A stretch of 64,000 bases of DNA from an uncultured delta proteobacterium (GCA_963771325.1 CAVYTJ010000004.1:28740-92739), one strand, 5' to 3'. Positions 48,159-52,440 are shown, numbered from the stretch's first letter. The notes: a model not told the origin generated them from the letters alone. Made by a program: numbers and translations.

Positions 48159-49325
48159 ATGGCTGAGGAGCGCCCCGCGCCCGAATCATTCCTCGACCTG
48201 GTCGCCGAGAAGCGCAAGGGCCGGCTCAAGATTTACGTCGGCGCCGCGGCCGGCGTCGGCAAGACCTGGCGGATGCTCGAAGAAGCACATGAGCTTCGCA
48301 ACAAAGGCGTCGACCTGGTACTCGGCTTCATCGAAACCCATCGGCGCGCCGACACCGAGGATATGGTGGGAGATCTGGAACTGGTCCCACGCCGCAAGCT
48401 CGACTACCGCGGCGTCGCGATGGAAGAGATGGACGTCGACGCGATTCTGGCGCGCAAGCCCGAGGTCGCGGTGGTCGACGAACTCGCGCACACCAACGTC
48501 GCCGGCTCCAAGCATGAAAAGCGCTACCAGGACATCGAGGAACTGCTCGCGGCGGGAATCAACGTGATCACCGCGATGAATATCCAGCACGTCGAGAGCC
48601 TCAACCCGACGATGAAGCGGCTCACGGGCGTGGACGTGCGCGAAACCGTGCCCGATTCCTTTCTCGCGCGCGCCGACCAGATCGTCAACGTCGACGTCAC
48701 CGTCGAGGCGCTGCGCGAGCGGCTGCGCGAGGGCAAAATCTATCCGCCGGCGCAGATCGAGCACGCGCTGAAGAACTTTTTCAAGCCGGGCAACCTTGCC
48801 TCGCTGCGCGAGGTGGCGTTGCGCGAGGTCGCGCGCGGACTCAGCCGCCAGCGCGAGGATCGCGAAGCGCTCCAGCGCGAAGGCGGGCGGCGCACGCTGC
48901 CGACCGAGCGCGTGATGGTCGGCCTGTCCTCCAATGCGCACGATCGCGGGATGCTCCTGCGCAAGGCCTGCCGCATCGCGGGACAGCTCGGCGCCGATTG
49001 GTACGCGGTGCACGTCGAAACGCCGTCCGAAGCCGTCAGCCGGGTCAGCACCCGCGACTTCGTCAAGCTGCTCGACAATATCAACCTGGCCGGCGACCTC
49101 GGCGCCGAAACCGTGTGGCTGAAATCGGATGACATCGTGGCCGCCCTGCTGGAATTCGCACGCGAGCATGGGATCACCAAGATCGTGATCGGCCGCACCC
49201 ATCAGCCGTTGTGGCGCCGCCTGCTCAAAGGTGACGTGACCAAGCGGCTGCTCAGCGCCGCGAACGATTTCGACGTCGAGGTCGTAGGCGGCGACAACGC
49301 CGACGAGGCCGACAAGGAGTCATGA
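48159..49325 (+). CDS. stand-alone KdpD N-terminal sensor domain plus Usp domain protein (no transmembrane or kinase part)
   Basis: KdpD-N Walker-A KIYVGAAAGVGKTWRML and the overall KdpD_N fold, followed by a universal stress protein domain (…RVMVGLSSNAHD…KIVIGRTH…). It ends at 49325 with ATGA overlap onto the next kinase. Confidence 0.8.
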   Translation: MAEERPAPESFLDLVAEKRKGRLKIYVGAAAGVGKTWRMLEEAHELRNKGVDLVLGFIETHRRADTEDMVGDLELVPRRKLDYRGVAMEEMDVDAILARKPEVAVVDELAHTNVAGSKHEKRYQDIEELLAAGINVITAMNIQHVESLNPTMKRLTGVDVRETVPDSFLARADQIVNVDVTVEALRERLREGKIYPPAQIEHALKNFFKPGNLASLREVALREVARGLSRQREDREALQREGGRRTLPTERVMVGLSSNAHDRGMLLRKACRIAGQLGADWYAVHVETPSEAVSRVSTRDFVKLLDNINLAGDLGAETVWLKSDDIVAALLEFAREHGITKIVIGRTHQPLWRRLLKGDVTKRLLSAANDFDVEVVGGDNADEADKES

Positions 49326-51106
49326 GCACCCCCTCCCTGCGCACGCGGATCCGCAACGTCAGCCTGCTGCTGGTGGTGCTGGTTATCGGGCTCGGCCTGT
49401 ACGCCTTGCCCCGCGTTTATCAGCTTGGCACCTCGATTCGCGACACGCTCTATCGCAACTACATCAGCATCGAGGCCGCACAGCACATGCACGATGCGTT
49501 GCGAGTGCTGCAACTGGCCGAGCGCGACGGCCACGCGCGCGACGCGCTACCGAGCTCCCGCGCCACCTTCATGCACTGGATGGATATCGAAGACCATGAC
49601 TTCACCGAGCTCGGTGAGCCCGAGCTCGCGCACGATATCCAGGGCCGCGGACAGCGGCTGTTCGACGAAATCGCGGCCGCGCCGCCGCAGGCGCGCCACG
49701 ATAGCGAGTTCGACGAGCTGCACGCGCGCCTGAACGATCTGATCGCGATGAACCAGGCCGCGATGTGGCGCGCGGACAGCCGCGCGGCGGGGCTCGGCAG
49801 GCGCCTGACCTACGAATTCGCCGGCGGCCTCCTCGCGCTGCTGGTGACGGGTACCGCCTTTTCGTGGGCGCTTGGATGGGCTCTCGCGCGGCCGCTCACG
49901 GAACTGGCCGAGCGGCTGCGCGGGCTCAGCCAGCGCCATACCCAGGTGCGCCTGGGGCCGCAGCCGCTGGCCGAGCTTGACGCGGTGGCGCGCGAGTTCA
50001 ACCAGATGGCCGAGCAGCTCGAGCAGTACGAGAAGCTCAACGTCGAGCGCCTGTTGTATGAGAAGCGCAAGACCGAAGCGATCATCGAAAGCCTCGAGGA
50101 CGGCGTGGTGCTGATCGATTCGGCGGGAATCGTCACCCATATCAATGAAATCGCCGCGCTGATCATGGACATCGAGCCCGCCGACGCGCTGGGCAGCCCG
50201 TTCGACGATCTCAGCAGCAACTCGCCGCACTACCGCCGCGTGCGCGACGCGCTGCGCGGGCTGCGGCGCGCGGCGCCCGACGGACCGCGTACCGAGGTGC
50301 AGTTGCACGTGCGCGGGCGCGATCATTCCTACGTGCTAAAGCCCATCCCGCTCCATCGCACCGAGGGCACGGCGTTCGGCACCCTGCTGATTCTGCAGGA
50401 CGTCACCTATCTGCGCGACCATGACCGGGCGCGCAGCAACCTGGTGGAAACGCTCTCGCACGAGCTGCGCACGCCGCTCACTTCGCTGGCGCTCTCCGCG
50501 CAACTGCTGCAACGCGAAGAGGCGACGCTCGAGCCCAGACAGCGTGAGCTTTTGCGCACGATTCTCGAGGAATGCGCGCGGATGAAGCAGCTCACCGACA
50601 GCCTGCTCAACCTCGCACGCGGCGAGCTGGCCTCGATCTCGCTCGAGCGCGAACGCATCGATCTCGCGCGCGTGGCCGAGGACGTCGCCGGACGCTTCCG
50701 GCTCCAGGCCGAGGAAAAGCACGTCGCGCTGGAGCGCAATATCGCTGAGGTCCCGCCCGTCAGCGGCGATCCGGTCAAGCTTTCGTGGGTGGTATCGAAC
50801 CTGATCGGCAACGCGCTGCGCTATACTCCCCAGGGAGGACGGATTGAAGTCATGACCGGATCCGCGGATGACACGGTGCGGCTGGAAGTTGGCGATTCCG
50901 GCCCGGGCATCGCGCCCGAGCTGCGCGACTACGTGTTCGAGCGCTTCGCGCAGTATGGCGACGGCGCGGATAAAGGATCGGCGGGGCTGGGACTGGCGAT
51001 CGTCAAGGATATCGTGGTCGCGCATGGCGGGCGGATCTTCGTGACTGGCAACGCGCCGGTGGGCAGCCGTTTCGTGGTCCAGCTGCCGGCGTCGCGGGAG
51101 GCTTGA
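49322..51106 (+). CDS. sensor histidine kinase (2-TM periplasmic sensor, HAMP, PAS, HisKA, HATPase)
   Basis: TM1 VSLLLVVLVIGLGLYAL, TM2 FAGGLLALLVTGTAFSWALGWAL, H-box LSHELRTPLTSL, and N/G boxes (NLIGNALRYT; GDSGPGI; GSAGLGLAIV). It is not a KdpD-type C-terminal module. Confidence 0.9.
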   Translation: MSTPSLRTRIRNVSLLLVVLVIGLGLYALPRVYQLGTSIRDTLYRNYISIEAAQHMHDALRVLQLAERDGHARDALPSSRATFMHWMDIEDHDFTELGEPELAHDIQGRGQRLFDEIAAAPPQARHDSEFDELHARLNDLIAMNQAAMWRADSRAAGLGRRLTYEFAGGLLALLVTGTAFSWALGWALARPLTELAERLRGLSQRHTQVRLGPQPLAELDAVAREFNQMAEQLEQYEKLNVERLLYEKRKTEAIIESLEDGVVLIDSAGIVTHINEIAALIMDIEPADALGSPFDDLSSNSPHYRRVRDALRGLRRAAPDGPRTEVQLHVRGRDHSYVLKPIPLHRTEGTAFGTLLILQDVTYLRDHDRARSNLVETLSHELRTPLTSLALSAQLLQREEATLEPRQRELLRTILEECARMKQLTDSLLNLARGELASISLERERIDLARVAEDVAGRFRLQAEEKHVALERNIAEVPPVSGDPVKLSWVVSNLIGNALRYTPQGGRIEVMTGSADDTVRLEVGDSGPGIAPELRDYVFERFAQYGDGADKGSAGLGLAIVKDIVVAHGGRIFVTGNAPVGSRFVVQLPASREA

Positions 51107-52440
51107 TGGCCCGGCTGCTGATAGTCGACGACGAGAAGAATATTCGCGCCAACCTGGCGTCGTTCTTCCAGTCAATCGGTCACGAGGTCGAGACCGCCGA
51201 AAGCGGCCGCCAGGCGCGCGCGACGATCGAGACGGCCTCGTTTGACCTGGTGCTGACGGATTTCCGAATGGCCGAGATGAATGGGCTCGAGCTCCTGACC
51301 GAGATCAAGAAGCGCCGCCCCGAGACCCTGGTGATCCTGATGACTGCCTACGGCACGGTCGAGAACGCGGTCGCCGCGATGAAGGCCGGAGCCTTCGACT
51401 ACGTGACCAAGCCCTTCTCGCTCGAACAGATTCAGCACCTGGCCGAACGCGCGCTGCAGCTCCAGGGGCTGCGGGCCGAGAATCGCGCGTTGCGCAACGC
51501 GATCGACGAGACTCCGCTCCTGGAGTCGAGCAGCTCCGCGATGGTCCGGTTGATGGATACCGCGCGCCAGGCCGCGGCGAGCGAGGCGACCGTGCTGCTG
51601 AGCGGCGAGAGCGGCACCGGCAAAAATGTGTTGGCGCGCCAGATCCATCGATGGAGTCCGCGCCAGGAGCGCCCATTCGTGGTCGTCAATTGCACCACGC
51701 TCTCCGAGGAACTGCTCGAGAGCGAACTCTTCGGCCACGTCCGCGGCGCATTCACCGGTGCGATCAAGGACAAGCCCGGGCGCCTGGAAGCGGCCGACGG
51801 CGGCACGGTCTTTCTCGACGAAATCGCCGACCTCTCAAGCGCTCTACAAACCAAGTTCTTGCGCTTCGTGCAGGAACAGAGCTTCGAGCGGGTGGGCGGC
51901 GATCGCACCATCCACGTCGACATCCGCATCATCGCCGCCTCCAACCGCGACCTGCGCTCGGAAGTCGCCGCGCGCCGCTTCCGCGAGGACCTGTTCTACC
52001 GGCTCAATGTCATCACGCTCTCGGTACCGTCGCTGCGCGAGCGCCGCGAGGATATCCTGCCGCTGGCGCTGTGGATGCTCACCGCGGCCAGCGTGCGCAA
52101 CCGCCGCACGCCGATGCAGCTTGCGCCGGAGGCGGTCGCCGCGCTCAAAAACTACAACTGGCCGGGCAACGTGCGCGAGCTGCGCAACGCCCTGGAGCGC
52201 GCCGCCGTGCTTTGCCGCAGCGACGTCATCACGCCCGACGATCTGCCCGACTCGATCTTCCGCGAAGCGCCGGAAAGCGGCGCGGGCGGAGCGGGACACG
52301 CGGCGAGCCTCGAGAAGGTCGAGCGTGAGCACATCATGCGCGTGCTTGCCCAGAGCGCGACCCTGGACGAGGCCGCGGCGACGCTCGGCATCAACGTGAC
52401 CACGCTGTGGCGCAAGCGCAAACGCTACGGGACCGACTGA
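51103..52440 (+). CDS. sigma54-dependent Fis-family response regulator (NtrC-type: REC, AAA+ sigma54 activator, HTH)
   Basis: Receiver (LLIVDDEKNIR…LTDFRMAEMNG), Walker A GESGTGKNVLA, the GAFTGA motif (GHVRGAFTGAIKD), ESELFGH, and a C-terminal Fis-type HTH (LAQSATLDEAAATLGINVTTLWRK). ATGA overlap with the kinase. Confidence 0.9.
   Translation: MMARLLIVDDEKNIRANLASFFQSIGHEVETAESGRQARATIETASFDLVLTDFRMAEMNGLELLTEIKKRRPETLVILMTAYGTVENAVAAMKAGAFDYVTKPFSLEQIQHLAERALQLQGLRAENRALRNAIDETPLLESSSSAMVRLMDTARQAAASEATVLLSGESGTGKNVLARQIHRWSPRQERPFVVVNCTTLSEELLESELFGHVRGAFTGAIKDKPGRLEAADGGTVFLDEIADLSSALQTKFLRFVQEQSFERVGGDRTIHVDIRIIAASNRDLRSEVAARRFREDLFYRLNVITLSVPSLRERREDILPLALWMLTAASVRNRRTPMQLAPEAVAALKNYNWPGNVRELRNALERAAVLCRSDVITPDDLPDSIFREAPESGAGGAGHAASLEKVEREHIMRVLAQSATLDEAAATLGINVTTLWRKRKRYGTD

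Follow-up and report, generated by a model that had tools for sequence, protein, structure and literature searches.

A probable sigma-54-dependent kdp operon with a stand-alone KdpD N-terminal/Usp protein in Candidatus Binataceae

In a 64,000-nt stretch of DNA from an uncultured delta proteobacterium (GCA_963771325.1 CAVYTJ010000004.1:28740-92739), hereafter the window, to whose positions all coordinates refer unless another locus is named, the genes of the Kdp K+ pump (kdpFABC; 43616-48122, + strand) are followed on the same strand by three regulatory genes. These encode a stand-alone protein composed of the KdpD N-terminal domain and a Usp domain (KdpD_N/Usp), a sensor histidine kinase and an NtrC-family regulator. 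Judged from the sequence, the pump genes and the regulatory genes probably form a single sigma-54-dependent, self-activating kdp operon, the Binatota counterpart of DVU3339.1-DVU3334 of Desulfovibrio vulgaris. The wiring is not new; as a kind, it has been known from D. vulgaris since 2011, and the novelty implied by an earlier note on this DNA was not borne out, the same operon having been described and mapped by experiment in that organism (PMC3333781, PMC4641369) and being found in several other phyla. By homology, the host, a soil bacterium, belongs to Candidatus Binataceae in the uncultured phylum Binatota; a homology search revealed the kinase of the window to be 100% identical to an NCBI protein from a Candidatus Binataceae metagenome-assembled genome (MAG).

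The operon order is 27-aa peptide, kdpF, kdpA, kdpB, kdpC, KdpD_N/Usp, kinase and regulator, all encoded on the + strand. The first open reading frame (ORF), which is unannotated, encodes a hydrophobic peptide of no known family (MWDLIFILATVAFFAVSLAYVEGCKRL; 43536-43619). The pump genes were identified as kdpF (43616-43708; Pfam Potass_KdpF, 4.7e-09; TIGR02115 above cut-off), kdpA (43736-45463; Pfam KdpA, 5e-254; TIGR00680, 820 bits), kdpB, encoding the P-type ATPase (45482-47524; TIGR01497, 1078 bits; TGES at residues 157-160 and DKTG at 305), and kdpC (47529-48122; Pfam KdpC, 8.5e-76). Downstream lie the genes for the KdpD_N/Usp protein of 388 aa (48159-49325; Pfam KdpD, 4.5e-94, and Usp, 1.6e-07), the sensor histidine kinase of 594 aa (49322-51106; Pfam HAMP, PAS, HisKA and HATPase_c) and the regulator of 445 aa (51103-52440; Response_reg, Sigma54_activat at 7.8e-68, AAA_lid_14 and HTH_8).

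Profile searches, motifs and hydropathy agreed on the composition that the earlier note had proposed for the region downstream of kdpFABC, namely a stand-alone KdpD_N/Usp protein, a HAMP-PAS kinase with two transmembrane (TM) segments and an NtrC-family regulator with a GAFTGA motif. In the KdpD_N/Usp protein, hydropathy and profile searches revealed no hydrophobic or TM segment, no GAF domain and no kinase half. The kinase has two hydrophobic segments, at residues 8-35 and 166-188, and the layout TM1, periplasmic four-helix bundle, TM2, HAMP, PAS, DHp (with H380 in SHELRTPL) and CA. Profile searches of the kinase found neither DUF4118, the KdpD-type four-TM domain, nor GAF, and its similarity to E. 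coli KdpD was confined to the DHp/CA core (30% identity over 227 aa). The possibility that it is a disguised C-terminal half of KdpD was rejected, the likeness to E. coli KdpD being one of DHp/CA only. The regulator carries the receiver aspartate D53, GESGTGK at 168-174, an intact GAFTGA at 215-220, DE at 239-240 and a Fis-type helix-turn-helix (HTH_8, 402-442), and the OmpR/KdpE-family domain Trans_reg_C was absent from it in both Pfam and NCBIfam searches. Lacking DUF4118, GAF and Trans_reg_C, the regulatory genes are, as had been claimed, not those of a KdpD C-terminal half and KdpE; the profile check turned up no KdpD-C-type kinase and no OmpR/KdpE-type regulator, and there was no sign of a separate unit for the three genes.

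Compared with the KdpD/KdpE system of E. coli, the window shares the pump genes, the N-terminal KdpD plus Usp module and the position of the regulatory genes at the 3' end of the pump operon. It differs in that KdpD_N lacks the four-TM/GAF/DHp-CA half, in that the kinase is of the HAMP-PAS type with a periplasmic four-helix bundle, in having an NtrC-type instead of an OmpR-type regulator, and in the predicted -24/-12 promoter, which replaces a sigma-70 promoter.

The translational coupling by ATGA overlaps that the earlier note had assigned to the regulatory genes holds in part. Among the three regulatory-gene junctions, the only ATGA overlap is that between the KdpD_N and kinase genes, whereas the KdpD_N gene is separated from kdpC by a 36-bp spacer and the kinase/regulator junction reads GGAGGCTTGATGG, with TTGATG at the joint. 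For the regulator, the ATG at 51106, which overlaps the kinase stop codon by 1 nt and has a GGAGG 4 nt upstream, is a likelier start than the alternative TTG at 51103. No terminator-like site was found in the spacers between the operon genes, matches over the region overall being at chance level, and no sigma-70-like promoter was found on the + strand of the intergenic region. An Rfam scan of 42000-53500 for a cyclic di-AMP (c-di-AMP; ydaO) or other riboswitch gave no match.

A -24/-12 sigma-54 element (TGGCATGTCTCGTGCG; 43506-43521, + strand) with GG at 43507-8 and GC at 43519-20 lies in front of the operon and was recognised by its conservation. In an upstream alignment of 15 diverse loci of the window's clade, GGCA-N7-TGC was found to be invariant and the flanks variable, and in the two further clades of Binataceae the sigma-54 element reads TGGCACGCGCGGTGCT or TGGCACAYCGGATGCT. 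A strict scan of the window with TGGCAC-N5-TTGCW gave 24 matches against 24.1 expected, and matches with two mismatches were at chance level. Because a match in the single window is thus at chance level, the case for the sigma-54 promoter rests on conservation.

Upstream of this element, two palindromes of the form TGC-N5-GCA were found, the first (TGCGAAGTGCA; 43418-43428) starting 88 bp and the second (TGCAAACAGCA; 43442-43452) starting 64 bp 5' of the -24/-12 element, with their centres 24 bp apart. Among 24 Binataceae loci from clades A and C, TGC-N5-GCA lay at around -88 (-85 to -90) in 21 cases; nine occurrences were at around -64, the background being 0.068 per 220 nt. The palindrome columns are conserved in the upstream alignment, and site 2 is kept at -63 to -66 in the window's clade. 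A near-identical palindrome (TGCAAACTGCA) at -63 precedes a sigma-54 element (TGGCACGGCCGATGCT) in a Polyangia locus; in a low-GC contig TTTCATTTTGAA is followed by TGGCATACCTCCTGCA, and the sigma-54 element of the unassigned locus L078 is CGGCACGCACCTTGCG. Upstream of kdp in the Desulfobulbaceae loci L076/L077, no -24/-12 element was found. From this pattern, we infer that the palindromes are binding sites of the NtrC-type regulator. The conserved element and palindromes in front of the operon lend support to the earlier proposal of a sigma-54 activator, rather than KdpE, as the regulator of Kdp.

About 64 loci of Binataceae and 'uncultured delta proteobacterium' MAGs (L001-L064) carry an orthologue of the kinase at 49-97% identity, and the order kdpA-kdpB-kdpC, KdpD_N, kinase and regulator is kept in essentially all of about 60 loci, down to approximately 65-70% protein identity, so that the synteny anticipated for related genomes was found. 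The 120 matches listed in homology searches with KdpD_N and the kinase were all Binataceae-like, with an identity of at least 68%; other phyla were reached via a search of 50% representatives combined with genomic context look-ups. In a Polyangia MAG (L074), the sigma-54 regulator gene is divergent from kdpFABC, and the KdpD_N/Usp and HAMP kinase genes follow the pump genes. A Desulfobulbaceae MAG (L076/L077) has the order regulator, HAMP kinase, kdpFABC, KdpD_N and second kinase, and the low-GC contig (L081) the order regulator, kdpABC, porin-like gene, KdpD_N and HAMP-PAS kinase. L078, where the nearest matches of its rpoN are Binataceae at ≤74%, has the window's order and an rpoN cluster 4 kb downstream. 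Compared along the full length of the window's regulator, the kdp-linked regulators from Polyangia and from Desulfobulbaceae share 47-49% identity with it. In other short-KdpD loci (L079 and L082), an OmpR-type regulator is present instead, accompanied by a DUF4118 kinase in L079.

One Binatota MAG (L044, 1588-11800) has a kdp locus of another type, in which genes for a PAS kinase, a sigma-54 regulator, a 221-aa ORF and a kinase come directly after a divergent kdpA (37% identity), kdpB and kdpC; the regulator is 64% and the last kinase 65% identical to those of the window, and this locus contains no KdpD_N gene. From the context comparison of loci, it follows that the kinase/regulator pair tracks kdp despite shuffled gene order, and that KdpD_N is separable from it. 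A search of a plasmid collection with KdpD_N gave mainly classical full-length KdpD, with short stand-alone forms in Deinococcota (D. radiodurans, Allomeiothermus), and none of the three loci examined from this collection had the sigma-54 variant. Overall, the module was seen in Binatota, Myxococcota, Desulfobacterota and a low-GC lineage, which is probably Bacteroidota, and the circuit is clearly widespread among the former Deltaproteobacteria and also outside them.

The closest described system is that of D. vulgaris Hildenborough, where DVU3334 was shown by DNA-affinity-purified chip (DAP-chip) to bind upstream of kdpF, with the motif CGTTACATTTTGTAACG at -149, and where the kdp kinase was described as 'split into two ORFs' (Rajeev et al. 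2011, PMC3333781). DVU3334, a GAFTGA regulator, and DVU3339.1-DVU3337 were subsequently listed under "potassium uptake" in the sigma-54 regulon of D. vulgaris, and orthologue-based sites were predicted for D. vulgaris Miyazaki (GATTACAAAATGAAATA) and Syntrophobacter fumaroxidans (CGTTTCATTTTGAAATG) (Kazakov et al. 2015, PMC4641369). Compared by published description, the two operons are equal in content and order, with kdpFABC, a KdpD sensor/Usp ORF, a separate histidine kinase and a GAFTGA regulator composed of receiver, AAA and DNA-binding domains. The D. vulgaris operon is self-regulated and that of the window is predicted to be so; each has a predicted sigma-54 promoter and, approximately 100-150 bp 5' of kdpF, a palindrome of the shape TTNC-N5-GNAA, which in the window is a putative operator. 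They differ in phylum, which is Desulfobacterota in one case and Binatota in the other, and in their operator half-sites, which are TGC/GCA at two sites in the window and TTAC/GTAA at a single listed site in D. vulgaris; the D. vulgaris operon is, in addition, targeted by two further regulators, DVU3305 and DVU0596. The Binataceae sites share the TTNC-N5-GNAA shape with the DVU3334 operator, although this motif is of little information and the half-sites of the window differ. The Binataceae clade B site GATGCATTTTGAAATG and the predicted Syntrophobacter site have the 12-mer CATTTTGAAATG in common. A literature search for a link between kdp and sigma-54 in Myxococcus found none.

These comparisons bear on the alternative that the kinase and regulator are an unrelated two-component system acting on other sigma-54 promoters, with kdp being transcribed from an unrecognised sigma-70 promoter. 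It could draw on the weakness of the -24/-12 match of the window when taken alone, and on the best NCBIfam matches of the kinase and the regulator (PnpS and AtoC), which were below their cut-offs and gave no specific name. Nevertheless, we regard it as very improbable, as the linkage to kdp is kept in about 60 loci and in several phyla even where the order is shuffled, the kdp operon is directly preceded by the conserved sigma-54 element and palindromes, the genes are joined by overlapping or 36-bp junctions with no terminator-like site in the spacers, and in D. vulgaris the homologous regulator binds the promoter of its own kdp operon.

The KdpD N-terminal domain has been described as an atypical serine kinase that phosphorylates S162 of KdpB and inactivates the pump at high K+, with Walker A (G-x5-GKT), Walker B (D109/E110) and W39/R190 being essential for serine-kinase activity (Silberberg et al. 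2024, PMC11018627). According to the same study, KdpD/Usp-only proteins retain this activity, which in Deinococcus geothermalis is controlled by c-di-AMP, and transcriptional control in many short-KdpD species is exerted by a separate system or is unknown. The KdpD_N/Usp protein of the window is 43% identical to the N-terminal plus Usp module of E. coli KdpD, and its residues G28-x5-GKT36, W37, D107/E108 and R188 align with G30-x5-GKT38, W39, D109/E110 and R190 of the E. coli protein. In the ITGES motif of the window's KdpB, E159 precedes S160, the counterpart of the target serine. The NCBIfam model 'KdpD-like non-kinase potassium sensor' aligns with the KdpD_N/Usp protein end to end at 377 bits, which is below its cut-off of 550. 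Since all catalytic residues of the KdpB-inactivating serine kinase are kept, KdpD_N/Usp is more likely a serine kinase acting on KdpB, and thus a post-translational off-switch, than the sensor of the histidine kinase.

In this respect, the window resembles the short KdpD/Usp kinases of D. geothermalis, D. radiodurans and Anabaena (PMC11018627), where a stand-alone KdpD_N plus Usp protein is encoded directly 3' of kdpC, the Walker A/B motifs and the W/R pair are kept and a separate two-component system handles transcription. In D. radiodurans (Deinococcota), this consists of a divergently encoded HAMP kinase and a non-sigma-54 regulator, a 'response regulator transcription factor' with no sigma-54 domain noted, whereas the system of the window is predicted to be co-transcribed and sigma-54 dependent. 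Control by c-di-AMP is a feature of the D. geothermalis protein.

Another conceivable origin of the short protein is decay, whereby KdpD_N/Usp would be the inactive remnant of a broken full-length kdpD, with the two-component system recruited secondarily. Truncation could indeed yield a short KdpD, and the score below the cut-off of the NCBIfam non-kinase model would fit. This explanation is scarcely credible, however, given that across Binataceae a KdpD_N form of 380-390 aa retains 70-97% identity, and 50-62% at equal length in other lineages, that the catalytic residues are invariant, and that nothing of a TM/GAF coding sequence is left, an ATGA overlap leading straight into the next gene. 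Many top representatives for the KdpD_N query (P0121, P0123-P0128 and others) are proteins of approximately 720-780 aa that match the query twice and appear to be tandem duplications of the whole KdpD_N plus Usp unit.

For the sensor part of the kinase, an AlphaFold model of residues 1-200 was all-helical, with a transmembrane hairpin flanking a four-helix bundle (predicted local distance difference test score, pLDDT, of 86.5). A PDB sequence search with the sensor region gave no match, nor did Pfam up to E = 10. Superposition on the KinB sensor (4llc_A) gave a TM-score of 0.75 on the target and a root-mean-square deviation of 2.7 Å at 20% identity, with a weak E-value of 0.076. Proteins identical to the kinase bear the automatic JGI name 'NtrC-family ... 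KinB'. QseE and KinB each partner with NtrC-family regulators. The pairs KinB/AlgB of P. aeruginosa and QseE/QseF (GlrK/GlrR) resemble the system of the window in combining a two-TM kinase that has a helical-bundle periplasmic sensor with an NtrC-family partner. They differ in their targets, which are alginate and glmY rather than kdp; the Foldseek E-values were all >0.02, and there was no significant sequence match to solved sensors.

According to the proposed mechanism, the two-TM kinase would sense K+ limitation or a related envelope cue and phosphorylate the regulator on D53. The regulator would then oligomerise on the two TGC-N5-GCA sites, and its GAFTGA loop would remodel sigma-54 RNA polymerase at 43506-43521. 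Transcription of the pump genes, followed by read-through into the regulatory genes, would create positive feedback. Under K+-replete conditions, KdpD_N/Usp would phosphorylate S160 in the TGES motif of KdpB and switch the pump off, with the Usp domain serving as input. In this way, a transcriptional ON function (kinase, regulator and sigma-54) and a post-translational OFF function (KdpD_N) would be combined in one module.

Several observations weigh against a sigma-54-dependent operon of this design. The -24/-12 element of the window has three mismatches to the consensus and alone is not significant. From the predicted transcription start, at about 43532, to the first ATG there is an unusually short stretch of only some 4 nt; the distance from the end of the -24/-12 element to the ATG of the 27-aa ORF (43521-43536 in the window) is 12-15 nt in the window's clade, in the Polyangia locus L074 and in L078, and the transcript is predicted to be nearly leaderless, with a leader of 2-5 nt. 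We know of no described class of leaderless sigma-54 transcripts. The rpoN gene was sought in the window and in all fetched loci and was found in L078 only; it is widespread in Binataceae MAGs, and we infer its presence in the window's genome. On the sensor side, Foldseek searches of the model against the PDB gave weak matches to QseE, KinB and NarQ, the best at E = 0.027. Regarding the input of KdpD_N, a regular-expression search of the Usp domain for SxS-X20-FTAxY, the c-di-AMP motif of S. aureus KdpD, found no match. Finally, the ATGA coupling of the KdpD_N and kinase genes recurs in several phyla, being conserved in Binataceae, Polyangia, L078 and L080, and leaves room for a direct interaction of KdpD_N with the kinase.

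This coupling also speaks for a functionally split KdpD, in which KdpD_N/Usp would dock on the HAMP-PAS kinase as cytoplasmic K+ or nucleotide sensor, so that the pair would replace full-length KdpD and KdpD_N would control transcription rather than, or as well as, KdpB. The description of the D. vulgaris kinase quoted above (PMC3333781) points the same way, as does the modulation of kinase/phosphatase output by the E. coli N-terminal domain, in work as cited within PMC11018627. Against it stands L044, where kinase and regulator accompany kdpABC without KdpD_N, and the position of the regulator, or of regulator and kinase, at the opposite end of the operon from KdpD_N in Desulfobulbaceae, L081 and Polyangia. 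Moreover, the sites at which KdpD is known to sense K+ belong to its TM/GAF part and not to the N-terminal domain (PMC11018627), and the serine-kinase catalytic residues, which a pure scaffold would not need, are all kept. We therefore consider a split KdpD possible but doubtful, and the label 'split KdpD sensor' used in the earlier note does not fit well with the complete set of KdpB-serine-kinase residues and with loci in which the kinase/regulator pair lacks KdpD_N or lies away from it.

The regulation of Kdp is taught almost solely from E. coli KdpD/KdpE. The locus and its relatives indicate that, in a large group of environmental bacteria, the transcriptional switch of Kdp consists of a sigma-54 activator together with a generic envelope kinase. 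The KdpD N-terminal domain is kept in these bacteria, probably only as a post-translational brake of the pump, which fits the view of the serine-kinase half as the conserved core of KdpD. For short-KdpD species, whose transcriptional control has been called "unknown", the module is a candidate. For annotation, it implies that proteins of the KdpD_N/Usp type should not be named "sensor histidine kinase KdpD". In practical terms, the locus offers a defined promoter/operator pair together with a candidate small subunit, rather than a new principle. More tentatively, the kinase/sigma-54 regulator/short-KdpD module might be an ancient, widespread alternative mode of Kdp control with a deeply conserved operator, in which the 27-aa peptide would be a genuine fifth partner of KdpFABC, encoded on a nearly leaderless transcript. 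If true, this would answer a question left by Silberberg et al. (2024), namely how species with no KdpD other than a short one transcribe kdp.

The least expected observation, though peripheral, is the conserved gene for this 27-aa membrane peptide 5' of kdpF. Its stop codon overlaps the kdpF start (ATGA), and the peptide is conserved at the amino-acid level in 46 fetched loci (window counted; 44 distinct DNA sequences), with variability of the gene being highest at third codon positions. Residues M1, D3, F13, F14, Y20, G23, C24 and L27 never vary, most of them having been required by the search pattern (G23 was not forced). Similar peptides were recognised by eye in Polyangia, Desulfobulbaceae, a classical split-KdpD locus, D. 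radiodurans and Allomeiothermus, and the corresponding genes were located in L074 (3869-3952), L077 (4383-4466), L078 (~4168-4251), L079 (4444-4527), L072 (~4298-4378) and L073 (~1387-1470). No such peptide precedes E. coli kdpF, and neither Pfam nor NCBIfam gave a match. With 84 nt, the gene is shorter than the 90 nt that gene callers usually require (Prodigal). One possibility is that the peptide is a small partner of KdpFABC not described so far; another is that it is a distant KdpF paralogue, since both the peptide and KdpF begin with W-[DE]-L-I.

In two Binataceae clades, the sigma-54 promoter is separated from the 27-aa ORF by a gene for a Cys-rich protein of 105-112 aa (CxxC ... GPCPG/A). 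This gene is present in L031 (3795-4133), L015 (~3870-4187) and about 30 other Binataceae loci and absent from the window, and the protein had no Pfam or NCBIfam match. Because the promoter precedes it, the Cys-rich gene would be the first gene of the kdp operon in those clades; in L013 and L046, the promoter sits between this gene and the 27-aa ORF. In L031, a second sigma-54 activator, which is without a receiver domain, is encoded immediately upstream.

A gene for a putative beta-barrel porin of the BBP2 family lies in or beside the kdp clusters of L081 (7551-8672), L082 (7807-8958) and L080 (3335-4432). In L081 and L082 it separates kdpC from the KdpD_N gene, and it is absent from the window. 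This suggests an outer-membrane entry route for K+ that is co-expressed with the pump in those lineages.

Elsewhere in the window, two near-consensus sigma-54 elements with one mismatch each were noted, namely TGGCATCGCAATTGCT (60595-60610, - strand), approximately 220 nt 5' of a zinc alcohol dehydrogenase gene (59287-60375, - strand), and TGGCACGAAGGTTGCG (4558-4573, + strand), approximately 250 nt 5' of an AAA_22 ATPase gene (4823-6262, + strand); the frequency of such one-mismatch matches equals that expected by chance. Directly past the stop codon of the regulator gene, a 15-bp tandem repeat (GCGAAACGCCGGCTA) in 2.8 copies with 92% matches was found at 52480-52521, overlapping the 3' end of a convergent luciferase-like monooxygenase gene (52507-53589, - strand).

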